IMG/VR virus record: IMGVR_UViG_3300020152_000026
Location: 1-59,905 of that record
Direction: 5' to 3' (one strand)
Origin: a virus
Lineage: Duplodnaviria; Caudoviricetes
Length of the DNA: 59,905 nucleotides
The position numbers were made by a program, and so were the translations under genes. A model generated the notes under the pieces. That model ran no database searches. It was not told where the DNA came from and saw nothing but the letters and a program-made list of their open reading frames with translations. Position 1 is the stretch's first letter. Each line of letters begins with the position of its first letter. Below, one piece after another: positions 24,701 through 55,514 of the stretch.

Positions 24701-27700
24701 CAAAGGGTGGAATTTCAAGGTTGACCCTACAGACAAATTGCAAGGCAATATTAAAACTCAACTTGAAGAAAAGCAGGAACTTACAAAAGAAAAAAGAGTT
24801 GAGAAGCTTAGGCAAGTAGCTGAAAATATGCAGGACACTATTGATGATAAATTTTCCGACAGATTGGTTAATACAGCTAGAAGGGCAAGAATGGCGGCAA
24901 GCGCAGAAGCAGATGGGGAATATTTGCAGCGTATACAACAAACTCTTCATAATATTGCTGATGCTATAGAATCAGGAGAAGTTAAACTGCTTGATAACAT
25001 TGATTCTAAGGCACAAGTTGAAACACTTGAGCATACTTTGTCTACTGCTAAGTACACAAGAATCCAAGCTGAACAAAAGAAAATGCGTGAAGAAAAGATT
25101 AATGATTATACCATTAGCGAATATTATCAAGAGCAAAAAAGCAAACCATATTCAAATGATGATATTCGACACGCTTCATTGCCACTTACTGAAATTAATG
25201 TTGATACTCTCAAACGCTTTATTCAAGAAATTAAAGGTAAAAAAGGATTTGTACTAATTGCAAATCGTTTATCAAAATTGGTTACCAAAGCAGATAAAGA
25301 CGGATATGTAGATGTTACTGAATACATTGACGAGATTGAAAAGATTATAAAAAATTCAAATGATGTTGCTAGTTATTGGGAAAGCACATTAGCCGAAAGA
25401 AAACGTTTAGCGAGAATGGGGATTGAATCAGACGAAGAATTAAGGGCATATTTAAGAGAGTATTTGCAGTATAGAGCAGGGAAAAGACAAAAGACTAGTG
25501 ACGAGATTGTAAAAGAAAAACAAAGGCAATTGATTGGCAGAAAGATTGAAGGTTACTTCCCTACCCCTGCAAAAGTGATTAATAAAATGCTTGAATATGC
25601 TGATATTAAAGAATCTGATACCGTATTAGAACCTTCGGCAGGACAGGGACATATTGTTGACGAAGTAAGAAAGGTTAGTCAAAATATAGATGTTGCAGAG
25701 TTTGACCCTTCTAACCGTGAAATATTAGAAATTAAAAAGTATAATGTTGTTGGCAATGATGCACTTTCTATTGACAAGCAATACAATAAAATTGTTATGA
25801 ATCCACCGTTTGAAAAGAATCAAGATATAAAGCACGTTCGTTATGCTTATGATAATAATCTTAAATCTGGTGGGCGATTAGTTGCTATTATGAGTGAACA
25901 TCCGTTTTTTGCTAACGACAAAGAATCTATTGCTTTTCGTGAATGGTTGGAAAGTGTTGGCGGTACTTCTGAAAAGTTACCGGAAGGAAGCTTTAAAGAA
26001 TCTGATAGGTCAACAGGAGTAAATACAAGGTTGGTCGTTATAGATAAACAGACACAACAAGCTGAAAGTACCGAACAAGCAACAGAACAAACTAACCAAA
26101 CTATACCGATTGACGATAGAAATTTTGATAATGTCGGCAGCAGAAAGGTTACGGCAATTCAACATGAGAATCCAGAACTAAAGCCATATATTCAAACTGA
26201 AGCTAAAAGGCTTTTGACTGAACTCAAAAATACTATAAAAGGCGAAAAAACAATTGGTGAGAATGAACAAGGCGAAACTACTTATCAAGGCGGTGTTAAA
26301 AGGCAAACATCAAAATCAATAGAAAGAATACTGGAATTAGAATCAAAACCGAGCTATGCAGAGATTGAAGATTCGCTTAATAGATTGCTTCATAATCAAG
26401 GTCAAGAAAACATTGCACTTGCAAAAAGGATTGAATTGGTTATTGATGATAATTTAAGTGAAGGCACTGTATCGCTTGAAGGTGTAGAAATTAAGCCGAA
26501 CAATGAGTATGTTTCTTTAAAAGGAAAAACAGCAGAAGAACCGACACTTACAGATGATGATTTACCTGTGATTGATAATTTTGTTAAACCACGCACACAA
26601 TCAAAAGGTTCTGTAGCTTTCAAAGGATTATCAGAATGGAAACAAGCTAGGAAAGAAGGTAAAATAGATCAAATAGAAAGACCTTCAGATATTATAAAAG
26701 AAATAGAGAAATTTTTGAAAGTACCAATAAGCAAAGGAAAAGTAACCAAGAGAAATGCATTAGGTATATTTAAAGTTCACCCTGAAACTGTCAGAATAAA
26801 ATTAACCAATGACCTTCCTGTTGTTTCGCATGAAGTCGGACACTATCTTGACAAACAATTCAAGCTGCAAAAAGCTTCCAATATCAATGAGGTTATTGGT
26901 TTGTTGCCTGATGATTTTGCTAGTTTGTATAAAGATTCAGAGATACCGGGTGAAGCTGTTGCTGAATTTGTCAGAATGTATTTACTTGATAAAGATAATG
27001 CCCAGCAGCAAGCACCGATGTTCTATTATGAATTTATAAATGCTCTTGATTCACAGACATTAAAATTCATTGACATAGCAGCTAACAGTATACAAAGTTA
27101 TATGAGTGCATCAAATATTGAGAAAAGTAAATCATTTATTAAATCGAGGACTGAAACTAATAAAAACAATAGTGTATCGGATATGTTTGATAAAATCTAT
27201 ACTAGAGTATTTGATGATCTAAACCCCATACAACTATTTGCAAAAGCCGTAGAAATGAAAAAAGATAATAAATTGACAGGAGCAAATAACCCTTATATCA
27301 TGGCTTTAAATAGTCGAGGTTCCGACATAATCGCTAATACTATTGCTACAGAAAGATTCATTGATTCAAAAGGTAATGTTATAGGAAAGTCGTTAAAAGA
27401 AATATTAGAGCCTATTCAAAATAAGAAATATAAAGACTTTACTAATTACCTTGTCAATAAACATGCGGTTGAATGGCTGACACCTGATGAAAACGGAAAT
27501 ACAAAAAGAGTATTTGCTGATAATACACTGAATAATTTAGAATCTGTACAAGAATCTGTGAAGTATTACGAAGAAAACTATCCAGAATTTATTGCTGTAG
27601 CAAATGAACTATACGAATATCAAAATAACTTACTTGATAAATGGTTAGTTGAAACTGGACTTTTACCAAAAGATGTAGCCGACACGCTGAAAGAAAAATA

Positions 27701-29657
27701 TAAGTATTATGTTCCGTTCTATCGTGACATTGAAGGGCAAGGTTCAAAAGCAAAAAGTAGCTTTGCTAATCAAACAGACCAAATAAAAAGTGCTAAAGGT
27801 TCAGGAGCAGATATTCTTGACCCTGTTGAAAGTATAATTGTAAACACAGAAAGATTTGTTAATGCTGCTAAGAGAAATGAAGTAATGCAGATTATTGACA
27901 GACATTACAAGTCAACTGATGGACTAGGTTATTTTCTTGAAAGAGTACCGCCAAACATGATGCCGCAAAGAACAGATATGACACAACTGAAAGCAAAACT
28001 ATCTAAGGCAGCAGAAGAAGCAGGAATAGAAAACATAGACGAATTAATTGATGATGTAATAAATGATACGCTGTTAACTTTTAGACCTGATATGAGCGGT
28101 AGAAAAGATATGGTTACAGTCTTTGTTAATGGTGAAAAGAAAATGTATCAAGTACATGACAAGGAATTTTTAAATGCTATTACTGCATTATCTCCGCAAA
28201 CTGCAAATTGGGTAGTAAATTCAGTAGGACAATTAACAAGGGTAATGAAGAATCTAACAACTGGTATAAATCCTATATTTGGTGTTGCACGAAACGTATG
28301 GAAGGATATTCCCACAACATTTATTTACAAGCGTTCAAAAGGCTTTAATTATCTTGTGCATATTGGAGATATTATGAAAGCTTTTGTTGATGTTATGAGG
28401 AATACTGAAGCATACAAAGAATATCATGCTGCCGGAGGTGGTCATTCATCTTCAATATCTGCCAATCGAAACTTGCTAAATGAAACGCTGAATGAAATTG
28501 TACCTGGTAGAAAAACGTCAAATGTTTTAAGAACCGGAGAATACTTATTGTCATTAGTTGAGCAGTTTAACAATGCTATTGAAAGTGCGCCGAGATTTGC
28601 TGAGTATAAAAAAACTGGTGGCAATACAGGAGCTTATTCAGATAAGATGCAGGCAATATTTGAATCACAAGATATATCTGTAAACTTTAAACGTCATGGC
28701 AAGTGGACTAAAGATGCCGATGCATTTATTCCTTATCTCAATGCAGCTATGCAAGGGCTTGACAAACTAGGCAGGACAGCAAAAGAATCACCCGGGAAGT
28801 TTATTATTAAGATGTTTATTTCTACTGTGCTACCAACTATCGTATTATATGCTATCAATAATGATGATGAAGATTACGAAAACTTATCAAGCTACATGAA
28901 GGACAACCATTTTAATATTAAACTTAATAACGGTAAGTTTTGGAGAATACCAAAGCCTAGAGAATTAGGTGTAATAGCTTCAGGCACAGAAAGAATATTG
29001 GAATATTGGAAAACAGATGATCCTGATGCTTTTTATGGATTTATTGATTATATTAAAACTAATTTCTTGCCACCTTTACCAATACCATTTATACAGCATG
29101 GAAGAACAATATTCGCACCATTAAATGATTTAAGAGCAAATAAAAACTTTGCTGATATTCCAATAGTTCCTAGAGAACTTGAAAAGTTACCTAACGAATA
29201 CCAATATGATAATAAAACATCTGCTATTGCTAAAGGATTAGGTTCTGCATTCGATATGTCACCTAAACAGATTGATTATATCATTGACAGTTATACTGGA
29301 ATTATAGGAAAGTTAAACCGTTCTTTGACAGCAGACAAGAAAGATTTTGCCGTTGGCATAGGTAACACGATTACAGCGGACCCGAATTATTCAACTGATG
29401 TATTCAATAAATTCTATGATGAAATTGATAAAATGGAGAAAATGAAACAAGAAAGCAAAATAAACAAAAAGTTGGTTGAAGGGTTTAATCCGGGTAAACT
29501 AAAAGCCTATAACCAAGTTGCTGATGTATTGTCAGATATGCGAAACAATATTAAAGCAATAGAAAAAGGTAAATTATCTGATGCTAAGAAAAAGGAACAC
29601 ACGGATAGAATCAGAAAGCAAATGATAGAAGTTACAAAAAAAGCATTACAAAAGTGA
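21711..29657 (+). CDS. giant polyvalent ejection protein: membrane-inserting N-terminus, N6-adenine DNA methyltransferase, HExxH motif, LPD38-like C-terminus
   Basis: A/G-rich hydrophobic helices (EAATEK..GEGSEE); YFPTP..VLEPSAGQG..IVMNPPF; SHEVGH; FIPYLNAAMQGLDK..WRIPKPRELG..NKNFADIPIVP..SPKQIDYIIDSYTG. Confidence 0.8.
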   Translation: MAIILRNSNISKSEESRRRKEAQQREVEAINRQRAAEEKSVQPATEGFGDFRSVERQIKPKPVLTKPIEPQPLIKPDIVPASSNSVGFGDFRQSERQAPSVYDIPISELMNKKVDLSQLPGKQQPTRPIQFTESDIKNPALYTLAKALQGGMQTGYGILGAQEALKDTVQDIASRVTGIKPQPVNNQFKLYPDANDLMKTTEEYNQNLAKAEDQYASGGQKLYGNIVSGTTAMIPTLAMSAVNPAAGLASTGITAGGAGARQAKNEGANPYQALAYGALTGAKEAATEKLFGLNMPFMKGSLDNVIEGAIKGGIKSQAGQALTKYVTGMVGEGSEEVISSLVEPWLQKMTYNPNAKVDYSGLLNDFLVGAGVSGVLGAPGTVIDVANSRQQSTPTVNAQPTIQRPTEQQPTPQQPIIKSPVQNVQPTKQQSTVGIVGKSTPVNAESRINKAIENQQRVIEDLQNQNLTYGIDVTQRMDLANRNLSRLNNLLQQEQKRKEQAKVDMQNRIKESEEYNRFVNGGLPNVIENTNVNVQNKPIPQVNIKPTEQFEPSKPVTVLPSTKSQAQDKIITSDDTMIPSRITNQGGLITVEKSDNPLFYTKNNSNNEIELYPDKIISDVRMEPQFTEWFDISRNDNSDKVSVVSPAILKYNPATRQYEFINKGKIAIGENTNTKPTQQIKLSEQTNILPVTENQAEGQINASETINVQMQQPIPQQPTKIQQPPMINAKTEQPRKIKNYKSIANPIQRISEFSSDVSKGELVDVDTVVQESNYVMDNEEPIKSELSKLKVAELSKMIPVMQRSYLTKKDEFVNKIYDNMLSRLYYNASGENSITYGFGSGSYSDVVRNKIKTSLTELTPEKLNNILSNNNAEYSEMQNRKTSYFEGLKNPKTLEDFQNKKRVLKLTQEEQDVYENLLADRNKKEREAKSVKDKERKAEKASQVVGDTDKYNIEKSTHSKTGEDVWVVTLNDRIDKDEWTSINSAMKSLGGNYWRGNKGWNFKVDPTDKLQGNIKTQLEEKQELTKEKRVEKLRQVAENMQDTIDDKFSDRLVNTARRARMAASAEADGEYLQRIQQTLHNIADAIESGEVKLLDNIDSKAQVETLEHTLSTAKYTRIQAEQKKMREEKINDYTISEYYQEQKSKPYSNDDIRHASLPLTEINVDTLKRFIQEIKGKKGFVLIANRLSKLVTKADKDGYVDVTEYIDEIEKIIKNSNDVASYWESTLAERKRLARMGIESDEELRAYLREYLQYRAGKRQKTSDEIVKEKQRQLIGRKIEGYFPTPAKVINKMLEYADIKESDTVLEPSAGQGHIVDEVRKVSQNIDVAEFDPSNREILEIKKYNVVGNDALSIDKQYNKIVMNPPFEKNQDIKHVRYAYDNNLKSGGRLVAIMSEHPFFANDKESIAFREWLESVGGTSEKLPEGSFKESDRSTGVNTRLVVIDKQTQQAESTEQATEQTNQTIPIDDRNFDNVGSRKVTAIQHENPELKPYIQTEAKRLLTELKNTIKGEKTIGENEQGETTYQGGVKRQTSKSIERILELESKPSYAEIEDSLNRLLHNQGQENIALAKRIELVIDDNLSEGTVSLEGVEIKPNNEYVSLKGKTAEEPTLTDDDLPVIDNFVKPRTQSKGSVAFKGLSEWKQARKEGKIDQIERPSDIIKEIEKFLKVPISKGKVTKRNALGIFKVHPETVRIKLTNDLPVVSHEVGHYLDKQFKLQKASNINEVIGLLPDDFASLYKDSEIPGEAVAEFVRMYLLDKDNAQQQAPMFYYEFINALDSQTLKFIDIAANSIQSYMSASNIEKSKSFIKSRTETNKNNSVSDMFDKIYTRVFDDLNPIQLFAKAVEMKKDNKLTGANNPYIMALNSRGSDIIANTIATERFIDSKGNVIGKSLKEILEPIQNKKYKDFTNYLVNKHAVEWLTPDENGNTKRVFADNTLNNLESVQESVKYYEENYPEFIAVANELYEYQNNLLDKWLVETGLLPKDVADTLKEKYKYYVPFYRDIEGQGSKAKSSFANQTDQIKSAKGSGADILDPVESIIVNTERFVNAAKRNEVMQIIDRHYKSTDGLGYFLERVPPNMMPQRTDMTQLKAKLSKAAEEAGIENIDELIDDVINDTLLTFRPDMSGRKDMVTVFVNGEKKMYQVHDKEFLNAITALSPQTANWVVNSVGQLTRVMKNLTTGINPIFGVARNVWKDIPTTFIYKRSKGFNYLVHIGDIMKAFVDVMRNTEAYKEYHAAGGGHSSSISANRNLLNETLNEIVPGRKTSNVLRTGEYLLSLVEQFNNAIESAPRFAEYKKTGGNTGAYSDKMQAIFESQDISVNFKRHGKWTKDADAFIPYLNAAMQGLDKLGRTAKESPGKFIIKMFISTVLPTIVLYAINNDDEDYENLSSYMKDNHFNIKLNNGKFWRIPKPRELGVIASGTERILEYWKTDDPDAFYGFIDYIKTNFLPPLPIPFIQHGRTIFAPLNDLRANKNFADIPIVPRELEKLPNEYQYDNKTSAIAKGLGSAFDMSPKQIDYIIDSYTGIIGKLNRSLTADKKDFAVGIGNTITADPNYSTDVFNKFYDEIDKMEKMKQESKINKKLVEGFNPGKLKAYNQVADVLSDMRNNIKAIEKGKLSDAKKKEHTDRIRKQMIEVTKKALQK

Positions 29658-29732: not shown

Positions 29733-30251
29733 GTGATTTTTATTATTAATCCTGAGAACTGGGAAGAAAGAATATGTATAGAGTGCGGCAAAAGCTTTAT
29801 GGTTAGAAAATGCTATACAAAAAGAGGGCAAGGAAAATATTGTTCTGTTTCGTGTCAAAGAACATATATTAACAAAACAAATAATCCTGCATGGCGTGAA
29901 GAAGTTAGAAAAAAGATAAGCAAAAATCACGCAGATGTATCAGGTAAAAATAATCCAATGTATGGACGCATTGGGGAAGAAGCACCTACTTATATAGATG
30001 GAAGGAGTAAGTATAAAGGAAGAACTTACAGGAAAATAGCCTTAGCAAATAACAAAGAAAGAAAATGCAAATGTTGTGGAGAAACAAATTTAAAAAAGTT
30101 ACATGTACATCATAAAGATGGTAATCGCTCAAACAATGAGTTAGATAACCTTCTTTTTTTATGTTCAAAATGCCACCAAACGAAAGCACATATATACATG
30201 CGAGACTTAAAAGGACGATTTGTAACGTCAGTTTTAAATAAAGCAATATGA
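29733..30251 (+). CDS. HNH homing endonuclease with NUMOD-type DNA-binding segment
   Basis: CIECGK..YCSVSC, GKNNPMYG, CKCCG..LHVHHKDGNRSNNELDNLLFLCSKCH. Confidence 0.85.
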   Translation: MIFIINPENWEERICIECGKSFMVRKCYTKRGQGKYCSVSCQRTYINKTNNPAWREEVRKKISKNHADVSGKNNPMYGRIGEEAPTYIDGRSKYKGRTYRKIALANNKERKCKCCGETNLKKLHVHHKDGNRSNNELDNLLFLCSKCHQTKAHIYMRDLKGRFVTSVLNKAI

Positions 30252-30266
30252 AGGGAATGATACTTT

Positions 30267-30977
30267 ATGCCTATACAAAATGGAATTGCACAAGACAATA
30301 ATATATTTGGAACACCTTTTAAAGTTGATTTAATCCCAGTATCAAATAAAACCGCAAGACCACAAATAAAAATGACACCTAAATATGTTACCGTACATAA
30401 CACAGGCAATCGTGCCAAAGGTGCTACTGCTGAAAATAATTCGGAGTATGTTGATAATAATACAGGTTATGTTTCGTGGCACTTTACCGTTGATGATAAG
30501 CAGATCATACAAGAATTGCCTATCAATGAAACAGCGTGGCACGCAGGAGACGGCAGAGGACAAGGCAATATGACAACTATCGGTGTTGAAATATGCGAAT
30601 ATGAAGGTATTAACTGGGCGAAAGCGAAAGAGAATTTCTTTAAGTTAGCTATGTTCCTAAAAGCGAATGTACCTTCTCTTAACAGAGATTTTCTTGTACC
30701 GCATCAAAAATGGAGTGGTAAGTATTGCCCTCATCGAATACTAGATGAAGGTTGGAGTAAGTTTTTAATTGAATACCATACATACGAAACTAGACCAATC
30801 ATAAAAGAACCTACAGAAGAAGAAAGAGTAAGCGCACTTTCGAGAGAATTAGCAGCACATAAGATTTATAACGATGTAGATTACTGGACAAATGTATTTC
30901 TAGGGAAAGAGCCAGCTAATCCAACATTCTTACGGATGGCTTTTTCAAATGTACTCGATAGAATAAAAGGGATTTAA
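30267..30977 (+). CDS. endolysin, N-acetylmuramoyl-L-alanine amidase (Amidase_2, XlyA-like)
   Basis: YVTVHNTGN, VSWHFTVDD, AWHAGDG..GN..IGVEIC, PHQKWSGKYCP. Confidence 0.92.
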   Translation: MPIQNGIAQDNNIFGTPFKVDLIPVSNKTARPQIKMTPKYVTVHNTGNRAKGATAENNSEYVDNNTGYVSWHFTVDDKQIIQELPINETAWHAGDGRGQGNMTTIGVEICEYEGINWAKAKENFFKLAMFLKANVPSLNRDFLVPHQKWSGKYCPHRILDEGWSKFLIEYHTYETRPIIKEPTEEERVSALSRELAAHKIYNDVDYWTNVFLGKEPANPTFLRMAFSNVLDRIKGI

Positions 30978-30983
30978 TAGACA

Positions 30984-31018
30984 AAGCCGGATTTATAACT
31001 TATAGGTTATATCCGGCT
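30984..31018. terminator. bidirectional terminator between the late operon and the minus-strand module
   Basis: AGCCGGAT..ATAAC-TTATAG-GTTAT-ATCCGGCT between convergent genes. Confidence 0.7.
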
Positions 31019-31371
31019 TATTTTTTGTTGAAAGGATAAAATAGATACTTGCATTTTGCAGGAGTAAAATTATCTGCAAGTAAATGAAGTGTGAATCCCC
31101 AGCCTACTCCAAGACCAAATTGAAAGTTAATAATACAGGCTAAACTTGTAAAAATTAGAGCTGCTAACATACTGTGAATGTGTTTCCTGTGTTTGAAGAA
31201 TATCCATAACGGACATATAAATGATGCAGGACTTCCGAATATGTCACTATCGGGTAATAAGCTTCCTGCCGCCAATCCTATCCAAAATGCTAGTTGTGGT
31301 AGTGGACGGAAAAATATTATCACTAAAATTGTTGCTATCAACATGTGTTGTTTTCCGCTGAAATCGTCCAA
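31018..31371 (-). CDS. YdjM-like membrane metal-dependent hydrolase
   Basis: GKQH, GSLLPDSD, HRKHIHS, HLLADNFTP..LFYPF. Confidence 0.8.
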   Translation of the reverse strand: MDDFSGKQHMLIATILVIIFFRPLPQLAFWIGLAAGSLLPDSDIFGSPASFICPLWIFFKHRKHIHSMLAALIFTSLACIINFQFGLGVGWGFTLHLLADNFTPAKCKYLFYPFNKK

Positions 31372-31420
31372 CTCCCTTCGTTTTTTCTTTAGTATTTTAT
31401 TTGTGTCGATATAATATGTA

Positions 31421-31744
31421 CTATGACCAAGGCGTTAGTTTATCCATCCATTCAGCGAATCCTTGAATACCATTGCTTATCTTTGTAACTGTACTGATAA
31501 AAGGGGTTACCCCTTGATAAGAAAGCTTTAGTAATTTAACCATTGATACACCAGCAATGCTCCAACCTACAAAGTTAACCATATCTGAAGCATCACGATT
31601 TATTGTTTGTGTTATTCTTTTAGCTATGAAGGTTATTCCTCTGATTGTAATGATTGCGGTTACTAGTTGTGTTGTTTGCTTTGGGTCGGCTCCAAGTGCT
31701 AATATGATTACTGTACCGCAGCCTACTACTGTTATTGTTAGCAT
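31421..31744 (-). CDS. small membrane protein
   Basis: 2-3 hydrophobic helices; RBS GGCGGTG. Confidence 0.65.
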   Translation of the reverse strand: MLTITVVGCGTVIILALGADPKQTTQLVTAIITIRGITFIAKRITQTINRDASDMVNFVGWSIAGVSMVKLLKLSYQGVTPFISTVTKISNGIQGFAEWMDKLTPWS

Positions 31745-31756
31745 ATGACCACCGCC

Positions 31757-31948
31757 TTAAAAGCTACTTAGAGCTTTGATAACCTGTGCGAATATAGTTA
31801 AACATGTTACAGCCAAACCCGATTTTGTCGCAAGGTCGAGGTATTGTGCTTCAATTTGCTTACCTACTGAAGTAAATATACCCTGAGTGATTGCGCTCGC
31901 CACCGTTGCGGTTGCCATTCCAATTACTACTACTGTACCACCTGACAT
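31757..31948 (-). CDS. small two-helix membrane protein, SpoIIIAC-like
   Basis: TM-(GK..EA)-TM pattern: VASAITQGIFTSVGKQIEAQYLDLATKSGL resembles SpoIIIAC; RBS AGGAGG. Confidence 0.55.
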   Translation of the reverse strand: MSGGTVVVIGMATATVASAITQGIFTSVGKQIEAQYLDLATKSGLAVTCLTIFAQVIKALSSF

Positions 31949-32036
31949 AAATACAACCTCCTAAATTTTAATTAATATTTTTATTTTATATTGGTTATAC
32001 TAAGGTTAAGGCAGGAGAGCAGAAGCCCTCCGAACC

Positions 32037-32285
32037 TCATTTTGCCTTTCGGCTTTTGAACTCAACTACATTGTGCTGTGACGGTGTAGTTGGGTTCGCT
32101 GCTTTTTGTGCTTTAATAATACGGTCTAATCTCCTGTGAATTTTGTTAGATACTATCCATGTAACTTTGCCTGTTATGCTTTTTCTTCCGTGCTTTCCTC
32201 TATGCGGCATAAAGAACCTTATAGCCTTATAGATAACGATAGCAAATAAATACATTTCAGCTAGGTTAATAATAAATTTAATCAT
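32037..32285 (-). CDS. membrane-anchored basic protein
   Basis: N-terminal TM, K/R-rich tail ending NVVEFK; RBS AAGGAG. Confidence 0.6.
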   Translation of the reverse strand: MIKFIINLAEMYLFAIVIYKAIRFFMPHRGKHGRKSITGKVTWIVSNKIHRRLDRIIKAQKAANPTTPSQHNVVEFKSRKAK

Positions 32286-32733
32286 GTGTAAATCGCTCCT
32301 TTTTCTTATAGTTTTTATATGAACAGGTCACCAATTAAAACAAAAAGATAAACCGATTACCGTACCGACCAACACACCAATACCATATCAATTCAAGTCC
32401 GTACATTATCAGTTGCTACAAAATCACAATCGTTACATAGGAAAATGATTTAACATTGACCCTCTGATTAGTTGTGGAGTTGTTGCAAAAGACATATACA
32501 AAAATGAATTAATACAATATCAATGCATCAATTAGTGCATTAATCAATTTATCTTTTGTAATTTCGGCTTTCTGTTATATATGTAATTGGGTATGTAATA
32601 GAATAATTTATTTTATAATTGCATTATGTTTTTAGATTATACTGTCTAAAACATTGATATAAAAGTGTTTTAAAGTCAATTGATATTATCGAACGAATAA
32701 TATAATGAGTGAGAGAATATCCTGCTGCTGATT

Positions 32734-33327
32734 TCACAGCAGGACTTTTGAAAATGCTTCAAGCTTAGTATTAAGCAATATTACTTGTGTATGCTTCAGT
32801 TCAACTTTTGAATAGTTTTTATCAGTAACTAATACAATTCGAGGGAAATGGTCTTTGTTAAGATAGTTCTGTACCTCCCATGTTTCGTACAAGGTATCAT
32901 ACTTCTCTAAGTTATGGTTATGGTTAGATAACTGAATTTCAAAAAACAAGTGGTATCTTCTATTTTGGAATACGAATATTGCAAATGCATCGGACCGTAT
33001 TTCTCTATCACACCAATTCTTATCCATTTGGAATAATTCAATCTGACAATCATTACGGTACAGTTCAGCGAGTACGTCTAAGGTAATCATGCGGTGTAGG
33101 CTGGGAGGTTTTATCTTTTCATCATTCCATATATAGATATTCCTGTTTGTGGCTGAATCTCTTAACGCCTTAATATATCCGGCTTCTTTTAATCTTTCCA
33201 ATCTCTTTCTAGCAATGCCATAGCTTGATTGTTGATTCTTAAAAAATATCTTCTGTAACTGCTCTATAGTGGCATACTTATATTGTTCAAAATATCTGAT
33301 TATCTGTTTATCCCTATCAGTAATCAA
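32734..33327 (-). CDS. replication-relaxation (Replic_Relax) family protein
   Basis: MITDRDKQII wHTH, ARKRLERL, IRSDAF..FFEIQLS..EKY..FPRIV (PD-(D/E)xK-like). Confidence 0.8.
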   Translation of the reverse strand: MITDRDKQIIRYFEQYKYATIEQLQKIFFKNQQSSYGIARKRLERLKEAGYIKALRDSATNRNIYIWNDEKIKPPSLHRMITLDVLAELYRNDCQIELFQMDKNWCDREIRSDAFAIFVFQNRRYHLFFEIQLSNHNHNLEKYDTLYETWEVQNYLNKDHFPRIVLVTDKNYSKVELKHTQVILLNTKLEAFSKVLL

Positions 33328-34672
33328 TTAAATCGTCCTCCTTCTTAATATAACTTATAGGTTTTATATCTTCTATTTGGTTTCTTGTCTTAGATGTGTC
33401 TATCAATGGATAAGGTGAATTGTTATTTATTTGCCTTGTGTGAGGTTTTTGATGTATCTTACGTGTTTTCATATTGATGATTGTACTTTGTTCGTTCTGA
33501 CTTAATTCTGATTCAATATTAACCTTCTTATGCTGTCTATCTATGTGCGGTTTTAATAGTTCGTTTAGTCTTTCTGTTGAGAGGTTGGGACTGAATAAGT
33601 AATCTCTTTTGTCGCCACCATTGAGTGAATATATTGCGTACCTATCAGCTATTCCTACAGCTGAATTGTTACCCAATATCACTTCACTTGATATAGAATC
33701 ATTCGCCCTAAATGAGATTCTAACAGCACTCATATTTTTAACTATGCTAGGCAATTCATCTTTTACGGTTTTTTGTGTGCAGATAATAGCGAATATGCCT
33801 AAACTTCTGCCGATTTTTTCAACTCTTTTTATTACGTCAAGTATTTCTTCTTTCAGTTGTTTTTCTTCTTTGCCATCCGATTTATCCGGCATAAGTATAC
33901 TAAATTCATCTATAAGTATGTACATATATGACATTTTCATTTTAGGGTTTTGTTTGTTGTATTCTTCAATGTTAGTAGCAAGGCCTTTGTCACGATACCA
34001 GCCTATTGTTTTCTTTCTCTTTTCTATTTGCAGCTTGATATACTTCATCATTTTGCTGAGTTCTTCAAGTTCACTGGCATAACATTTAACATGCTTGACG
34101 TATTTGAAATTAATATATTCATCTTTGGCTATATCAGATATGTACAATTCAACTTCTTCAGGACTACATTTTAATATCCAACTTAAAAGTATCTGATAAA
34201 TGAACCTTGTTTTTCCGGCTCCTGTTGCTCCTGCAATCAAGAACATACAATTCTTATTATTGTTATTCTTGATAATGTTTAAAGCTAAGTCCAATCCTAA
34301 GTACATTTCGTGCGGTCTTATGCATGGGTTTTCGTATGGTGTTAACCTATCAAGTGATAATGTCACAATCTTTACCTCCCCATAATCTTTTAATTTCTCT
34401 GTTTTCATTACCCAAAGACAATTCAAACCTTCTTCAATTAAACAAACCTTTTTTTCTAATTCTGAAAAATAAACCCCAGGAACTAAATATACTTTTGCGA
34501 AAAACCCGTATGAAGTTTTATTAAGTACCTGTAAATAGTAAGTCTTATTGAATTTATTGTATAGATCAAGTTCAAACATGAGCCTATAGAATTTACTTTC
34601 CAGTTCTGTTATTTCTTTTTGTAGTTGAAGCTTTTCATTGCTCTGGCTTAATATTGATAACAATAGCACCAC
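33317..34672 (-). CDS. FtsK/SpoIIIE-family ATPase (DNA translocase / coupling-protein-like)
   Basis: LIAGATGAGKT Walker A, ILIDEFS Walker B, GRSLGIFAIICTQK, RISFRAND..SEVILG. Confidence 0.9.
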   Translation of the reverse strand: MVLLLSILSQSNEKLQLQKEITELESKFYRLMFELDLYNKFNKTYYLQVLNKTSYGFFAKVYLVPGVYFSELEKKVCLIEEGLNCLWVMKTEKLKDYGEVKIVTLSLDRLTPYENPCIRPHEMYLGLDLALNIIKNNNNKNCMFLIAGATGAGKTRFIYQILLSWILKCSPEEVELYISDIAKDEYINFKYVKHVKCYASELEELSKMMKYIKLQIEKRKKTIGWYRDKGLATNIEEYNKQNPKMKMSYMYILIDEFSILMPDKSDGKEEKQLKEEILDVIKRVEKIGRSLGIFAIICTQKTVKDELPSIVKNMSAVRISFRANDSISSEVILGNNSAVGIADRYAIYSLNGGDKRDYLFSPNLSTERLNELLKPHIDRQHKKVNIESELSQNEQSTIINMKTRKIHQKPHTRQINNNSPYPLIDTSKTRNQIEDIKPISYIKKEDDLIDY

Positions 34673-34676
34673 CCTC

Positions 34677-34871
34677 TTAAAACAATTTTGATTTAGTTCT
34701 TTTGTTAAGAGATTCTTTTTGTCTGTTTAGATTTATCATAAGTGGTGTCAAATCATTTTTATTACTTCCTTTGAAATTCTTCATCTTGTGAACGAATAAA
34801 ATAGATGCTGGCAATCCTATGCCTCCTACAAACCATTCAAGATGATTCCATACAAAGTTTACAATCTCCAT
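34677..34871 (-). CDS. small membrane protein
   Basis: One TM helix and a basic tail; RBS GGAGG. Confidence 0.6.
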   Translation of the reverse strand: MEIVNFVWNHLEWFVGGIGLPASILFVHKMKNFKGSNKNDLTPLMINLNRQKESLNKRTKSKLF

Positions 34872-34880
34872 ATGTACCTC

Positions 34881-35036
34881 CTATCTAAGTTTTACATGAT
34901 TAATTTTAGTCATTCCTTTAATGTGGTCGTTTCCACTGTTGAAAGTTACTAATTCATTCCGAGTGTCATAATAAAATTCAACTCCGGCATTAGTAAGATT
35001 TGTTAGAACTATTTTTGCAAATTCATTATTAGTCAT
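34881..35036 (-). CDS. small hypothetical protein, first gene of the FtsK operon
   Basis: ATG at 35036 after AAGGAGG (MTNNEFAKIV...). Confidence 0.55.
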   Translation of the reverse strand: MTNNEFAKIVLTNLTNAGVEFYYDTRNELVTFNSGNDHIKGMTKINHVKLR

Positions 35037-35145
35037 ATGAAAACCTCCTTTTTTATTGTCTATGGTATATGATATTAAGTAGTTGCATATATGTTGCGTG
35101 TCCAAATAAAAAAAAATTACAAAAAAATAAAAGGCTTTTCAGCCT

Positions 35146-35667
35146 TCATTTATTCTGATCTATATTTGCAAAAAATAACTTTAAACTTTCATTTACAATA
35201 TCACTCTTATCTATATTAAATTTCTTTGATAATCTATCTATTTTTTTTATTAAATCATTTTCTATGTAATATGCCCTTTGTTTCCGTTCTTCCAAGTATT
35301 TAAGCCTTTTTTGTATGGTAATTTCATTAGTATTTAGATTAGTACTAAGTATAGTTTCAACTTTAGTAATCTTATTAGTTTCAATACTGCTATTTTTATT
35401 ACTATCCGTATTAGTATTGTTATTGCTATTCATGTTACTATTATTAGTAGTATCTGTATCAGTACTGTTACTAGTATCTGTATCAATTTTTCTACTGCTT
35501 GTCCTATTGTTATCTGTATTAATTTCCGTATTATCATTTATACTAGTTGGTGTATTAGTGTTTGTCCTATCTTCTGTACTAGTATCTTTAGTAGTAATAA
35601 AAAATTGGTCTGCTGCGCTGTCTACTTGTTTTAATCCTCTATCTGCCAAACTAACACGCTTTGCCAT
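35146..35667 (-). CDS. ParA partner (type Ib ParB-like, C-terminal ribbon-helix-helix)
   Basis: Overlaps the parA end; long T/N/S disordered linker; QRAYYIENDLIKKIDRLS..DKSDIVNESLKLFF. Confidence 0.7.
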   Translation of the reverse strand: MAKRVSLADRGLKQVDSAADQFFITTKDTSTEDRTNTNTPTSINDNTEINTDNNRTSSRKIDTDTSNSTDTDTTNNSNMNSNNNTNTDSNKNSSIETNKITKVETILSTNLNTNEITIQKRLKYLEERKQRAYYIENDLIKKIDRLSKKFNIDKSDIVNESLKLFFANIDQNK

Positions 35668-36394
35668 AGTTAATAACCTCCTGCGCTAACTGATTATAGT
35701 ATTCTGCTATTTCCTTATCAAACTCATTCATTCCTACACCAGCAAGAATACAATCGGAAAACTTAATACTGCGTTTTATAATTGTGCTAAACACTTTATG
35801 ATTAGAGCGAAGTTCTTCTAATATCTCCTTATGATGTATTGTGTTCTGGTACATTGTAGGAAGGACACCCATGATTTCTATTTTAGGATTTAACCTCGAT
35901 ACTTTTTTAATAGTGTTCTGAAGCAAATTATAACCCCTTAAAGCCAAGTATTCGCATGCCATAGGTATGATAACATAGTCAGATGCTACAAATGCATTTA
36001 CGGACAATAAACCAAGCGAAGGAGGGCAGTCTATTAATACATAATCATATTCGTTTTTGATTGGTTCAAGTGCATCTTTTAGTTTTGATTCCCTGCCGAT
36101 CTCTGATACTAATTCTAATTCTGCTGCTGCAAGGTCTATATTTGATGGTAGAAAGAAAAACTTATCTCTATCGGCAAGGATAGCTGTTTTTATATTTTCT
36201 TCCTTCAGGACATTATAAATTGTTTTGTTAAGTGTATGCGGTTCCAGTTGAATTGATATTGTCAAGCTTGCTTGTGGGTCCAAGTCAATAAATAATACTT
36301 TGTACCCCTGTTCAATTAGTGCCATACCAAGATTGAGCGTTGTAGTAGTTTTACCTACACCGCCCTTTTGATTGGCAACGCTAATGATTTTCAT
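35651..36394 (-). CDS. parA: ParA/Soj partition ATPase
   Basis: NQKGGVGKTTT, IDLDPQASLT, DYVLIDCPPSLG. Confidence 0.93.
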   Translation of the reverse strand: MKIISVANQKGGVGKTTTTLNLGMALIEQGYKVLFIDLDPQASLTISIQLEPHTLNKTIYNVLKEENIKTAILADRDKFFFLPSNIDLAAAELELVSEIGRESKLKDALEPIKNEYDYVLIDCPPSLGLLSVNAFVASDYVIIPMACEYLALRGYNLLQNTIKKVSRLNPKIEIMGVLPTMYQNTIHHKEILEELRSNHKVFSTIIKRSIKFSDCILAGVGMNEFDKEIAEYYNQLAQEVINYGKAC

Positions 36395-36410
36395 TTGTAC
36401 ATTTCCCCCT

Positions 36411-37271
36411 TTAATATGGATTAGTTATGTTATGACTTTGATATTCTGCTATTGAGTTATATATAACAACTGCCAAATAGTTAACGCTATTTGTAACCTT
36501 TTCAGCATGATTGTTCTTCAGTTTATCTATTGCATAGGTTATTATGCTAGAATTAAGCCTTTTTAAATTCTTTCTCACAATAGACTGTGGGATCTCTATG
36601 TCTTTACACTTAAACGTATTACTAAAATATAATTGTTCTATTGCCATTTCAATACTTTCCATAAACTCCGGCTTAAATACTTCTAATTCACAATTGGTTA
36701 TGATTTCTTCAAGTTCAGTCTGTCCTTCTGTATTACTGATTGATTGATTAGTAGAATCAGTATTAGTATAATCATTTATTAGTAGGCTGTCATTTCCTTC
36801 ATGTAGATTACCTACTTGTAGGTTTTGGGAACGTAGGTCAATCCCTTTAGTATCAACTACTTGCCTGTTTTGGGAATGTAGGTTTTTATAAATTATTTCT
36901 TCACTTATAATCTCGCCATCATCAGTGCATCTAATTTTAATACATTGGATAATTTTATCGTTAGGATATGGTTCTTCACTCAATACACTTTCCCAATAAT
37001 CAACTTTACCATTTACATATATCGGATAACGTTGTAAATACTTTTTATCTTTTAGTTCATTAAGACCACTTCTGACAGACTTTTCACCATCAACAGAGTT
37101 ATTAACAAGGTCACATATTAAAATAGACCAATCGTCAGGCTTTGAAAGTATGTATGCTGCTATTCCTCTAGCTTTATATGATAATGACGAATCATTTAAT
37201 AATCGTTTATAAATTTGTGCGTATGGGTTCTCACGGTTTCGTTCTTTGCGGATAATATTTTTTTGTGCCAT
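36411..37271 (-). CDS. replication initiator (wHTH), likely for the plasmid state
   Basis: ENPYAQI..LSYKARGIAAYILSKPDDW..DGEKSVRSGLNELK..YL; C-terminal NYLAVVIYN; ATG 37271 after AGGGGTG; adjacent to parA. Confidence 0.75.
   Translation of the reverse strand: MAQKNIIRKERNRENPYAQIYKRLLNDSSLSYKARGIAAYILSKPDDWSILICDLVNNSVDGEKSVRSGLNELKDKKYLQRYPIYVNGKVDYWESVLSEEPYPNDKIIQCIKIRCTDDGEIISEEIIYKNLHSQNRQVVDTKGIDLRSQNLQVGNLHEGNDSLLINDYTNTDSTNQSISNTEGQTELEEIITNCELEVFKPEFMESIEMAIEQLYFSNTFKCKDIEIPQSIVRKNLKRLNSSIITYAIDKLKNNHAEKVTNSVNYLAVVIYNSIAEYQSHNITNPY
36812..36883. repeat. iteron-like 27-bp direct repeats inside rep (putative origin)
   Basis: ctacttgtaggttttgggaacgtaggt (36812) and ctacttgcctgttttgggaatgtaggt (36857). 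Confidence 0.65.
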
Positions 37272-37499
37272 TAAAAAAACACCCCTTTGCAGTTTCCCAA
37301 AAACAAACTTGCAAAAGAGTGTAATGTTCAAAATTTTCCTATTGCAAAATAGGTATACTTATTGTATAATAAGCATAAATTGAATATTACAAAGCACTTT
37401 GTGTTTTGTTTTTGGAGCTTTAAGGAACGAAAATCTTGGCGGGTTGACGTTCCTTTTTGCTTGTCTAAAATTATATACTATATATAATAAAAATTCAAT

Positions 37500-37688
37500 T
37501 TATTTTTCATAGTCCTTAAAATATTTCTTGTACTTTGCGAATAATAGTAACAAGGCTTCGTCTAATAGTTCAGACTGTTTTATTTTAGATTTTTTTGAAA
37601 GATACTCTAGTTTTTCTTTTAATTCAATTTTAACCGCATTTGATATAGGTTTCCTGTACACTAATCCTTTATTTCCTGTTTCAGCCAT
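37500..37688 (-). CDS. ribbon-helix-helix DNA-binding protein
   Basis: GLVYRKPISNAVKIELKEKLEYLSKKSKIKQSELLDEAL. Confidence 0.75.
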   Translation of the reverse strand: MAETGNKGLVYRKPISNAVKIELKEKLEYLSKKSKIKQSELLDEALLLLFAKYKKYFKDYEK

Positions 37689-37825
37689 AACTACATCTGC
37701 CCCTTCTAAGTTGTTTTATGAACATTATAGCATTGAGGTAGCATTAATGTAATTCCTTGCAGTTCCTAGCAGTTCCATGCACCTATTGATGTATATGCAA
37801 TTGCAAGCAAATATATGATTAAAAC

Positions 37826-37865
37826 AAACATATGTTTTCGACTTATTATGTCGAATTATGTCGAA
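37826..37865. promoter_or_regulatory. tandem Spo0A boxes plus a LexA-like box
   Basis: TGTCGAA at 37849 and 37859, inverted near-match TTCGACT at 37837, AAAC-ATAT-GTTT at 37826. Confidence 0.6.
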
Positions 37866-38066
37866 GCTTGTAATTATTTTTGGATTGAATATATATAAAG
37901 TTGGTGATAAAATAAAACATGTCTTGAAAATGATTGATGACGAAGGGGGTGGTTTTATGTTTTGTGCATAAAAAAAGAGGGTAAACAATACCCCCGAAAA
38001 TAGTATAAATTACCTATTAAAAAATCAATTAATATAGTACCATACTACCAGGAAAAAATATAGATA

Positions 38067-38078
38067 GAACATTTGTTT
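38067..38078. promoter_or_regulatory. Firmicute SOS (LexA) box
   Basis: GAAC-ATTT-GTTT matches GAAC-N4-GTTY, just upstream of an RBS and small ORF. Confidence 0.55.
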
Positions 38079-38099
38079 GTATGGTATTGAAGGAGGAAC

Positions 38100-38189
38100 A
38101 TGATTATCGTAGTATTGGATTCAGATGACATTCAGAGTATTGACATAACTAATCATACAGATAAAGAAAATTCGGATAATGATAAATAA
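38100..38189 (+). CDS. 29-aa acidic peptide
   Basis: AGGAGG RBS; MIIVVLDSDDIQSIDITNHTDKENSDNDK. Confidence 0.5.
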   Translation: MIIVVLDSDDIQSIDITNHTDKENSDNDK

Positions 38190-38215
38190 TACAATAAAAA
38201 GGCTTCAACTTTTAA

Positions 38216-38638
38216 TTAGTTGGAGCCTTTTATTTCTTTCTCTTTTTTTACTTTTTCTCTTATACTTTTAGCAATTAGAAGTATTTCATCATCGGATAAA
38301 TCTTTCTCATCTAGCATCTTAGCAAATATAATATACGGTTTGTTCTCCTGATCTTTTATCCAGTCTATTTCTTCTTTATTTAAATTCTGCATTACTTCGT
38401 TTATATCTTCAATGTTTTCTTGATAGCTATCTGACGTTAAAAATGTTATTGGAACGTCTAGTGCTTTTGCGAATATATCAGCATTTTTGTTTGTTAATTT
38501 TTTTGTTCCAGATTCTATTTTCTTAATCAGGCTTACACTTAGATTAATCTTTTCTGCCAATTCTTCAACTGACATTCTTAATTCTTTTCTTCTTAATTGA
38601 ATTTTCTGCCCTTCACTTACATTTAACATTTTAAACAA
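38216..38638 (-). CDS. XRE-family HTH repressor (CI-like, no peptidase domain)
   Basis: GQKIQLRRKELRMSVEELAEKINLSVSLIKKIESG; divergent from the cro-like gene. Confidence 0.85.
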   Translation of the reverse strand: MFKMLNVSEGQKIQLRRKELRMSVEELAEKINLSVSLIKKIESGTKKLTNKNADIFAKALDVPITFLTSDSYQENIEDINEVMQNLNKEEIDWIKDQENKPYIIFAKMLDEKDLSDDEILLIAKSIREKVKKEKEIKGSN

Positions 38639-38710
38639 CTCCTTGCATTATATAACAATAAATTACATGCTTTAATAAACATAACGATTAATAGTATAAC
38701 ATAAGATTCA

Positions 38711-38843
38711 AAATAGTGCAATAGTTTTCACTATTTATTTTAGAAAATATCTATATTTGGTGAAATTGCACAAAACAAAAGTGATTATTAGTGCATTATA
38801 ATTTTATAAAACTCTTGAAAAGTGTTCTAAAGTACACTATAAT
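38711..38843 (+). promoter_or_regulatory. lysis/lysogeny switch: three operators and a rightward sigmaA promoter
   Basis: AGTG-N10-CA(C/T)T at 38715, 38780 and 38821; TTGAAA(38815)-N17-TATAAT(38838) with the third operator filling the spacer. Confidence 0.75.
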
Positions 38844-38872
38844 ATACATATAAAGTGAAAGGCGGTGAACAA

Positions 38873-39076
38873 ATGGTCAAAGGTCTAGGCGAAAAAATAA
38901 AAGCACTTCGCAAAGCAAAAAACATTTCTCAAGAACAACTCTCAAAAATGTGCAATGTCAGCAGAAGAACAGTTATAAATGCTGAAACAAGCAAAAAGAT
39001 TCCAACATTAAGTACCTTAGAAAAACTTGCATCAGGATTAGACACAACGATTGACAACTTGATAACTAATAATTAA
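38873..39076 (+). CDS. Cro-like XRE HTH protein
   Basis: LGEKIKALRKAKNISQEQLSKMCNVSRRTVINAE..PTLSTLEKLA. Confidence 0.85.
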   Translation: MVKGLGEKIKALRKAKNISQEQLSKMCNVSRRTVINAETSKKIPTLSTLEKLASGLDTTIDNLITNN

Positions 39077-48677: not shown

Positions 48678-48797
48678 ATGTTTTTAAAGAAAATATTTTG
48701 TAGACACCAATATGAATACATTGGTAAAGACAAAAAATATTTTTTTTACAGATGTAAAAAATGTGGAAAGTTTAAAGATGCTTTAATAGTTTGGTAG
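48678..48797 (+). CDS. small Zn-binding protein (FCRH..CxxCG)
   Basis: MFLKKIFCRHQYEY..YRCKKCGK. Confidence 0.5.
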   Translation: MFLKKIFCRHQYEYIGKDKKYFFYRCKKCGKFKDALIVW

Positions 48798-55510: not shown

Positions 55511-55514
55511 GGTC

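Follow-up and report, generated by a model that had tools for sequence, protein, structure and literature searches.

The DNA analysed here, called the window below, is the whole of the IMG/VR virus record IMGVR_UViG_3300020152_000026 (Duplodnaviria; Caudoviricetes), 59,905 bases long. Downstream of a rep-parA operon, its minus strand carries a co-oriented block of genes (31018-35110) in which the gene of an FtsK/SpoIIIE/TcpA-type ATPase overlaps that of a Replic_Relax nuclease by 11 nt; the open reading frames (ORFs) and the overlap reported in the initial annotation were both confirmed. Around this pair stand four small proteins of 64, 82, 63 and 107 aa (Table 1). The nuclease has 52 relatives in a large protein collection, and 28 sequences were aligned. 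Scans for related loci with this single protein returned none, and scans based on the alignment gave two genome loci, two viral loci and five metagenome loci, to which tblastn added the Clostridium phages c-st, D-1873 and LPCPA58. The ORFs of 11 related loci were all searched by blastp, and gene positions and alignments were compared as well. A constant order emerged: a small tail-anchor-like protein, the ATPase, the nuclease, a gap of 360-625 bp, a protein of about 82 aa with a transmembrane (TM) helix and a basic stretch, variable small ORFs, a hairpin protein of 60-63 aa and a membrane protein of 103-130 aa. The full order is present in the window, c-st, L003, L005, L006 and L044, and it holds as far as the contig extends in L042, L043, L004, L045 and L046 (L042, L043 and L044 are closely related to each other, hence not independent). 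The six core genes are a conserved unit, not chance neighbours, and their grouping as one module, as first proposed, is borne out by the recurrence of the order in every sufficiently long related locus.

A partition system always lies upstream of the module, and three unrelated types occur: the window and L006 have ParA, L003, L004, L005, L042 and L044 have ParM with a small ribbon-helix-helix (RHH)-like gene, and c-st has, according to the annotation, TubZ/TubR-like genes. In several relatives, hardly any or no DNA separates the par genes from the module, which suggests that the module is expressed in the plasmid state. The two ends of the block are less constant. The short YdjM-family hydrolase was initially counted in the module; it matches PF04307 at 53.9 bits for a cut-off of 29, covering profile positions 3-121 of 176, and has a counterpart by blastp in none of the 11 related loci, so that it has to be set aside as an accessory gene. 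The first small ORF, for which the ATG giving 51 aa is a likelier start than the TTG giving 74 aa, encodes a soluble protein with no family match and no blastp counterpart in the same 11 loci, and its membership of the module is doubtful.

The ATPase, whose start may instead be the TTG at 34663, matches PF01580 (FtsK_SpoIIIE) at 48.8 bits for a cut-off of 24 and phrog_1358 (FtsK/SpoIIIE-like) at 5.8e-55; the PHROGs scan of the block also gave phrog_9996 at 6.6e-40. Compared by sequence with solved structures, it found TcpA (6o1w) first, at 4.6e-12, followed by EccC/EssC and FtsK, with scores that are nearly tied (TcpA 48.8, EccC 47.4 and FtsK 41.5 bits). The AlphaFold2 (AF2) model is moderate overall, with a predicted local distance difference test (pLDDT) score of 62, and good in the core; Foldseek placed it close to TcpA (1.4e-14) and to the FtsK motor (7e-13), the TM-score being higher for FtsK. 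The Walker residues G148, A149, G153-K154-T155 and D255-E256 are invariant in seven aligned ATPases. Residues 395-451, modelled with pLDDT below 50, comprise a variable linker and a conserved acidic tail (..DDLIDY-COOH). All seven sequences end in (D/E)(D/E)x(I/V/N)DY-COOH with the C-terminal DY invariant, and this acidic terminus looks like a docking tail. The Ftsk_gamma domain, the winged helix-turn-helix (wHTH) that reads FtsK-orienting polar sequences (KOPS) or SpoIIIE recognition sequences (SRS), gave no match in the ATPase at E<=0.1. PADLOC returned generic matches of the ATPase to the SspH, mads8 and HerA models, and no specific system match for the other seven proteins scanned.

Hydropathy revealed no hydrophobic segment in the 451 aa of the ATPase, that is, neither a TM segment nor a multi-pass N-terminal membrane domain. 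Since its relatives in Riggi, Gamma, LPCPA58 and pMU3262 begin with a single fused hydrophobic helix, the 64-aa protein, whose gene is conserved directly upstream of the ATPase gene in relatives, plausibly supplies the membrane anchor in trans. Under a strict hydropathy test (19-aa window, Kyte-Doolittle value, KD, >=1.6), the 82-aa protein has one segment, the 63-aa protein two, the 107-aa protein one strong N-terminal segment and YdjM at least two. The 64-aa protein stays below KD 1.6, its Gly-rich, moderately hydrophobic stretch covering residues 13-28. Hence, among the four small membrane proteins described initially, the 82-, 63- and 107-aa ones pass the test and the 64-aa one does not.

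The 197-aa nuclease matches PF13814 (Replic_Relax) at 17.5 bits, under the cut-off of 25.3, and over residues 15-67 only; among the 28 aligned family members, 19 match PF13814 at E<=0.01, the best at 7.8e-7. Its AF2 model has a pLDDT of 94.3. Residues 1-73 form a winged helix (Z 9.5), and the rest gave weak Foldseek matches, nearly all to PD-(D/E)XK nucleases; D113, E130 and K142 are invariant in the 28 aligned sequences. A profile search of solved structures with the alignment gave chance matches only, and phrog_2190 and phrog_9381, both named "replication initiation", matched weakly (9e-6 and 1.6e-5). Judged by its sequence and model, the protein appears to combine a wHTH with a PD-(D/E)XK domain and to be Replic_Relax/MOBC-like, with a predicted nicking activity. 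PF13814 is described as the MOBC relaxase family, restriction-endonuclease-like, with TraX of pAD1 and MobC of CloDF13 as prototypes (PMC5357655, Table 1; PMC12857230; PMC3424549). The non-coding gap that follows the nuclease gene is found at the same place in the window, L003, L006, L042, L044 and c-st. In the window it holds four ATATCAAT(T/G) copies, two direct and two inverted, a count that carries no significance figure, and in the alignment of the non-coding gaps the only conserved sequence is that shared by the window and L005. As a candidate cis site, the gap may be like an origin of transfer (oriT), a clt or a loading site.

The 63-aa protein is the one that ties the module to sporulation genes by likeness. 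It found 23 matches among 1.84 billion representatives; a repetitive match of 1355 aa was dropped, and the window protein and 22 others were aligned. The resulting hidden Markov model (HMM) was searched against 488 ORFs from the spoIIIA loci of about 30 genomes, where all 25 curated SpoIIIAC ORFs fell within the top 32. The real SpoIIIAC sequences scored a median of 13.2 bits and 22 of the 25 reached at least 11 bits, a score reached by none of 25 reversed sequences (maximum 2.7 bits) and none of 249 shuffled ones (maximum 7.3 bits). In the reverse search, with a SpoIIIAC HMM, at least 8 bits were obtained by 11 of 23 real family members, by a single one of 230 shuffled sequences and by none of the 23 reversed ones. 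A SpoIIIAD HMM likewise favours real members of the 63-aa family, with a maximum of 24.8 bits versus 8.9 for shuffled ones. Aligned by hhalign, the 63-aa family and SpoIIIAC gave a probability of 67% (P 5.2e-5) over 42 columns, and the G-K-x-x-E-A loop of the former was paired with the G-R-x-E-x-A loop of the latter. The likeness to SpoIIIAC/SpoIIIAD is therefore order-dependent and takes in both the two-TM hairpin and the G-[KR]-x-[ED]-x-A loop. As far as sequence tells, the 63-aa protein and SpoIIIAC are genuinely, if distantly, related. The SpoIIIAC-like pattern noticed initially in one small protein is thus recovered by reciprocal profile searches in which reversed and shuffled controls fail.

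Profile comparison of the other small proteins with SpoIIIAC and SpoIIIAD, also proposed in the initial annotation, ended differently. The candidates of a SpoIIIAD-like 107-aa protein and of SpoIIIA-like 82- and 64-aa proteins were rejected, real, reversed and shuffled sequences scoring alike; only the 63-aa protein retains an order-dependent likeness. The 82-aa protein has no family match in Pfam, PHROGs and further profile collections including PADLOC. A word search of 5.8 billion proteins with the 107-aa protein gave one exact copy, itself, and the Atlas search was uninformative, with only a 0.76 feature match and generic helical-bundle structure rows. A TrbC/VirB2 gene named in Andromedaviruses (PMC9658697) prompted the idea of a pilin of a type IV secretion system (T4SS); it was discarded, the 63-aa and 107-aa HMMs being unenriched among 581 ORFs from PF18895/PF04956 (T4SS-pilin/TrbC) loci.

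The plasmid pMU3262 of Thermoanaerobacterium offers an independent and very distant version of the module, its nuclease being 30% identical to that of the window. The genes there run as a 63-aa SpoIIIAC/AD protein, a 120-aa protein, an FtsK-family ATPase, Replic_Relax (30.3 bits for a cut-off of 25.3) and a Spo0E-like phosphatase. The 63-aa protein matches PF06686 at 49.8 bits for a cut-off of 24 and TIGR02848 at 51.8, just under the equivalog cut-off; the Spo0E-family gene of this megaplasmid (5826-6038) comes directly after the FtsK-Replic_Relax pair, and a YdjM gene lies 2 kb downstream of the pair. Even very distant versions therefore keep the link of the ATPase and nuclease to a SpoIIIAC-family gene. 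On p2BKT015925, a gene annotated as spore photoproduct lyase (splB, 4235-5257) stands 1.3 kb after the FtsK-nuclease pair, from the annotation only. By tblastn, the window 63-aa protein found no match in plasmids or phages, and the SpoIIIAC-like protein of pMU3262 found seven faecal scaffolds labelled "UNVERIFIED Bacteriophage sp.". Two of them, L106 (MT835785.1) and L107 (MT835629.1), were rejected as phage cases: they carry complete chromosomal spoIIIA operons and ligA, without FtsK or nuclease, and are probably bacterial DNA rather than phage.

Table 1. Coordinates of the module and of associated features in the window
Feature	Position	Strand	Remarks
First small ORF	34881-35036	minus	51 aa from ATG at 35036 behind AAGGAGG; 74 aa if from TTG at 35105
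64-aa tail-anchor-like protein	34677-34871	minus	Gly-rich hydrophobic N-terminal stretch, NDLT motif, basic tail
FtsK/SpoIIIE/TcpA-type P-loop ATPase, 451 aa	33317-34672	minus	PF01580
Replic_Relax (MOBC-like) protein, 197 aa	32734-33327	minus	Predicted winged helix and PD-(D/E)XK
AT-rich non-coding stretch, 448 bp	32286-32733		Candidate cis site; also holds promoter
82-aa protein	32037-32285	minus	One N-terminal TM helix; basic helix KSI.GK..L.S.KIH.KLD; C-terminal NVV.FK motif
63-aa two-TM hairpin, G-K-x-x-E-A loop	31757-31948	minus	Distant SpoIIIAC/SpoIIIAD (PF06686) relative or mimic
107-aa membrane protein	31421-31744	minus	N-terminal TM, conserved GWS.AG segment; always directly after 63-aa gene
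Short YdjM-family membrane hydrolase, 117 aa	31018-31371	minus	PF04307; accessory gene
Terminator-like hairpin	35130-35147	minus	Between par RHH gene and module leader
RHH protein (par)	35667-35146	minus	Plasmid-maintenance operon
ParA	36394-35651	minus	AAA_31 1e-61; plasmid-maintenance operon
Rep-like winged-helix protein	37331-36411	minus	Plasmid-maintenance operon
Small RHH gene	37688-37500	minus	Plasmid-maintenance operon
Two perfect Spo0A boxes TGTCGAA, 3 bp apart, then TTGTAA	37849-37855 and 37859-37865	plus	Non-coding, upstream of RHH-rep-parA operon
Small serine recombinase/invertase	952-1524	plus	Between small and large terminase genes

The element that carries the module has the virion and lysis genes of a tailed phage (terminase, portal, major head proteins and an amidase endolysin), a CI/Cro-like switch with an anti-repressor, and a lytic replication set of Erf-like annealing protein, DnaD-like initiator, primase/DnaB-like helicase and Holliday-junction resolvase. 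Because a plasmid-maintenance operon is present and no tyrosine integrase was found among the 55 window ORFs scanned, it looks like a plasmid (extrachromosomal) prophage, in agreement with what had been assumed at the outset. Scans of the same ORFs with Pfam, PHROGs and further families detected no VirB4 and no other T4SS family, as the initial annotation had claimed. The serine recombinase may resolve multimers of the plasmid form. DNA searches of 30900-37400 at near identity against phage and plasmid collections gave no match, nor did Rfam across 30900-39000. Elsewhere in the window, a single ORF of 2648 aa (21711-29657, plus strand) lies amid the virion genes; it has a stretch like an S-adenosylmethionine (SAM) methyltransferase in mid-protein and could be a giant protein that is carried in the virion or injected. 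Directly upstream of the amidase endolysin (30267-30977, plus strand), alongside which no holin gene is recognisable, lies an HNH endonuclease gene (29733-30251). The early region encodes a radical-SAM protein (55371-56468, plus strand; phrog_9298 1e-111, no NCBIfam match) and a protein like a 3'-phosphoadenosine-5'-phosphosulfate (PAPS) reductase (48791-49735, plus strand).

The tandem Spo0A boxes reported initially were found again as perfect copies with the 3-bp spacing. They sit in a 500-bp non-coding region 5' of the RHH-rep-parA operon, which itself precedes the module. TGTCGAA occurs five times in the window for 3.9 expected, and shuffling the window 300 times produced a pair of copies within 15 nt only twice. 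The arrangement recurs in L044 at 9862-9878 (TGTCGAA, 3 nt, TGTCGAA, 2 nt, TTGTAA), with other flanks, in non-coding DNA just after the module; nine further loci, both related ones and comparison ones, were inspected and lack the pair. Footprints of Spo0A in phi29 and Nf cover pairs of boxes with the same 3-bp spacing; in these phages Spo0A suppresses the lytic cycle and Spo0J helps the genome into the prespore, Spo0A sites also assisting in phi29 (PMC2731898). The module leader itself (35040-35130) matches neither strict sigmaE/sigmaK pattern, and no sigma-70-like site was called in it. The CATA-type boxes of this leader had been presented as a weak match to sigmaE/sigmaK promoters, and weak they are, because only the relaxed pattern ATA-N16-18-CATA[CT]A fits, at 35092/35090, and this pattern has 14 matches over both strands of the window.

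With the window nuclease, tblastn found 96 plasmids (Bacillus 48, Priestia 28, Clostridium 17, Thermoanaerobacterium 2, Clostridiaceae 1) and four Clostridium phages. The Gamma and Riggi nucleases each match 105 phage records (Bacillus 97, Geobacillus 6, labelled "Staphylococcus" 2), and an FtsK gene is named next to the nuclease in most of the phage rows listed. In Priestia and Bacillus BS98 plasmids, a nuclease relative occurs with no FtsK annotated alongside. The expected restriction to elements of spore-formers thus holds almost throughout these matches (96/96 plasmids, 103/105 phage records and 4/4 Clostridium phages with endospore-forming hosts). The expected restriction to integrase-less phages does not, because the integrating phage Gamma carries the pair, next to a serine integrase and between the lysis and lysogeny genes; it is found also in podophages (Pony) and in Andromedaviruses. 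The nuclease family is rare, being present in 4 of 399 sampled genomes (two further genomes were unscored), and both metagenome-assembled genomes (MAGs) that carry the module have spoIIIAC/AD. Overall, the pair spans Bacilli and Clostridia and is unseen in heavily sequenced asporogenous Firmicutes, a pattern that fits a sporulation link.

The domain identities, gene order, SpoIIIAC likeness, Spo0A boxes and host range, all computed directly, are best joined in a reading that we put forward tentatively, at somewhat less than even confidence: the module would serve sporulation-linked DNA translocation and inheritance of an extrachromosomal prophage. Inheritance through sporulation is proposed because the module is linked to partition genes and includes a SpoIIIAC relative, whose counterpart in pMU3262 is bona fide and comes with Spo0E, and because of the Spo0A boxes and the host range. 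In the mechanism that we infer for membrane tethering, site-specific cutting, contact with SpoIIIA and the direction and destination of DNA movement, the 64-aa protein would hold a hexameric FtsK/TcpA-like motor at the membrane, replacing the fused helix of the relatives. The winged helix of the Replic_Relax protein would bind a site on the element, probably in the neighbouring non-coding stretch, and its PD-(D/E)XK centre would nick or cut this site and pass the DNA to the motor. Positioning or coupling of this motor where the mother-cell membrane faces the forespore may fall to the three small membrane proteins, with the SpoIIIAC-like hairpin as the putative link to the SpoIIIA-SpoIIQ complex. 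As an outcome, a copy of the element would reach the spore. Phosphorylated Spo0A (Spo0A~P) on the tandem boxes upstream of rep/par could link maintenance and module expression to sporulation entry. A translocation machine had already been suggested by the initial annotation. What stands of it is a conserved unit with an FtsK/TcpA motor, a wHTH-nuclease and one SpoIIIAC-like protein; YdjM and the SpoIIIA likeness of the other small proteins fall away. A more specific version, to which we assign a low probability, is an intracellular conjugation in which the relaxase-like nuclease and the FtsK/TcpA-like motor, docked by a SpoIIIAC mimic on the SpoIIIA-SpoIIQ "feeding tube", pass a copy of the phage-plasmid from mother cell to forespore.

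Several points weigh against a sporulation-linked translocation. We know of no route that would take a closed circular plasmid across two membranes unless the septum has trapped it. PF06686 fails to match the window 63-aa protein at E<=0.1, also in a six-frame search of the window, and misses the copy in MAG G001 as well; when 650 ORFs are ranked by the SpoIIIAC HMM, the first three places go to the L005, c-st and L003 copies, and the window copy comes 12th, at E 4.2. Clostridium tetani and Clostridiaceae plasmids carry the FtsK-Replic_Relax pair without a detectable 63-aa relative. The presence of spoIIIAC in the host MAGs has to be read against a base rate of 30/41 (about 73%) in the sampled genomes of the class. 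FtsK-like ATPases, when counted alone, are also found in Mycobacterium (52), Listeria (9), Staphylococcus (8) and Enterococcus (3) phages, and confounding by phylogeny and by the reach of tblastn could contribute to the host-range pattern. Besides, the FtsK gene of phage Fah is a delayed-early lytic gene (PMC4113786), and the order of FtsK followed by nuclease is that of coupling protein and relaxase in mobilisable elements of Firmicutes (PMC5357655).

The last point leads to conjugative mobilisation, which is a serious rival because the Replic_Relax family is the MOBC relaxase family (PMC5357655; PMC12857230; PMC3424549), although we consider it unlikely. A TcpA-type coupling protein and a MOBC-type relaxase nicking an oriT in the adjacent gap would let the prophage ride the mating pore of a co-resident element, with the small membrane proteins as adaptors. 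Such a role is in keeping with the position of tcpA directly upstream of the relaxase gene in integrative and conjugative elements (ICEs) and integrative and mobilisable elements (IMEs) of Firmicutes (PMC5357655), with TcpA of pCW3 as the top solved relative of the ATPase by both sequence and fold, with the conserved catalytic residues and wHTH of the nuclease, and with the conserved position of the non-coding stretch beside its gene. However, the scores of the ATPase against TcpA and FtsK are almost equal, and the streptococcal survey of Coluzzi et al. pairs MOBC relaxases with VirD4, never with TcpA (PMC5357655). MOB-suite types 78 of the 96 relative-bearing plasmids as non-mobilisable, a VirB4-like gene (AAA_10) exceeds the cut-off in neither of the two host MAGs, which may be incomplete, and phages that are described as lytic, or as devoid of plasmid or lysogeny genes, carry the pair too. 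Mobilisation leaves unexplained the SpoIIIAC-like gene, the Spo0E of pMU3262, the Spo0A boxes and the near-absence outside spore formers.

We find it improbable that the module, rather than moving DNA, interferes with other elements or with the host, either through defence or superinfection exclusion by ATPase, PD-(D/E)XK nuclease and membrane effectors or through manipulation of sporulation, for instance by a dominant-negative SpoIIIAC mimic that blocks the SpoIIIA-SpoIIQ channel. Pairs of HerA/FtsK-type ATPase and nuclease are common in defence, as the generic PADLOC matches recall, the place of the Gamma pair is a usual one for accessory genes, Spo0E, which adjoins the pair in pMU3262, belongs to a family of sporulation inhibitors, and mobile elements that delay sporulation are known (PMC8032392). 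Yet the other seven scanned proteins match no specific PADLOC system, the tight link to three kinds of partition genes points to element inheritance, and the nuclease wHTH looks sequence-specific, with a conserved non-coding stretch adjoining. The least credence is given to a replication module in which Replic_Relax would be an origin-nicking initiator and the FtsK-like ATPase a motor or helicase. The pair is annotated inside replication regions of Bacillus phages and is delayed-early in Fah (PMC4113786), the weak phrog_2190 and phrog_9381 matches agree with such a role, and the Pfam name comes partly from plasmid pUA140; these function names are nevertheless transferred annotations, not experiments. 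The window already has two initiator sets, the rep-like wHTH with ParA and the DnaD-like protein with primase-helicase, and because it thus combines a plasmid rep with a lytic set that also includes Erf and a resolvase, the pair appears dispensable for replication here. Replication would also leave unexplained the four conserved small, mostly membrane proteins, the fused ATPase helix of the relatives and the SpoIIIAC link.

The route by which low-copy plasmids and non-integrated phage genomes enter the small forespore is largely unsolved, phi29 making use of host Spo0J and of Spo0A sites. The module is a concrete, element-encoded candidate machine for this step, with a DNA motor, a predicted site-specific nuclease and a SpoIIIA look-alike. 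If sporulation-linked translocation is true, it gives a role to the FtsK/"replication-relaxation" pair of more than 100 Bacillus, Geobacillus and Clostridium phage records and bears on what the SpoIIIA-SpoIIQ channel can transport; intracellular conjugation, if true, would be a vertical transmission in which DNA becomes a substrate of the A-Q channel. Should mobilisation be true instead, the window would represent a clear example of a tailed phage-plasmid that carries the equipment for conjugative mobilisation. No published description of the module was found, and in the Replic_Relax and SpoIIIAC/SpoIIIAD literature, judged mostly by titles, no title deals with phage- or plasmid-borne SpoIIIAC genes. 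Where the sporulation genes of gut phages were surveyed, spoIIIE is listed and "spoIIIA" is absent from the main text (PMC10294663). For the phage FtsK gene, the roles speculated upon are injection (PMC3853050), translocation or sporulation control (PMC4113786) and remnants of plasmid replication or segregation (PMC9658697; PMC9703825).

Known systems share parts of the module. The TcpA and relaxase modules of pCW3, Tn916/ICEBs1/ICESt3 and streptococcal IMEs, also found on Firmicute mobile elements, likewise have an FtsK-like gene directly upstream of, and coupled to, a gene for site-specific DNA processing. Their partner is a Rep_trans or tyrosine-recombinase-like relaxase, whereas here it is a Replic_Relax/MOBC-like PD-(D/E)XK protein. 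In addition, the window ATPase has no TM segment of its own, VirB4, VirB6 and VirB8 genes are lacking, and the module resides in a tailed phage that also encodes plasmid maintenance, with a SpoIIIAC-like gene linked to it. The MOBC relaxases TraX of pAD1 and MobC of CloDF13 share with the nuclease the winged helix, the restriction-endonuclease-like fold and conserved acidic and lysine residues, but the window protein is short, scores below the family cut-off and is paired with an FtsK-type, not a VirD4-type, ATPase. With the SpoIIIE/FtsK pumps and the SpoIIIA-SpoIIQ channel, the module has in common an FtsK-family motor, the SpoIIIAC/AD-like 63-aa protein, spore-former hosts and Spo0A boxes. 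It differs from them in that the ATPase has neither a multi-pass membrane domain nor a gamma domain, a look-alike exists for just one SpoIIIA protein out of eight, and the genes are on a mobile element and paired with a nuclease. The system of Streptomyces TraB, Spd and clt also uses an FtsK-like motor, several small membrane proteins and a nearby cis site and needs no T4SS (PMC12857230). However, the TraB equivalog NF041214 scores 18.2 bits on the window ATPase for a cut-off of 800, and the hosts are not mycelial. The 8-bp clt repeats of TraB systems are bound by a wHTH of the ATPase itself, whereas the window ATPase has no C-terminal wHTH and a separate nuclease would recognise the DNA. The FtsK and "replication-relaxation" pairs of Bacillus/Geobacillus phages (Gamma/Wbeta, Andromedavirus, Pony-like podophages, Tyrovirus) have the same overlapping two-gene core and, like the window, often small hydrophobic ORFs and RHH/ParM genes nearby. 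Their ATPases are 21-29% identical to that of the window and have the TM helix fused, and homologues of the 82-, 63- and 107-aa proteins were undetected in the Riggi, Gamma and Clostridium phage LPCPA58 regions searched. With a link to sporulation that is credible but unproven, the module is thus an extended new variant of the known modules of FtsK-like ATPase and relaxase-like nuclease.

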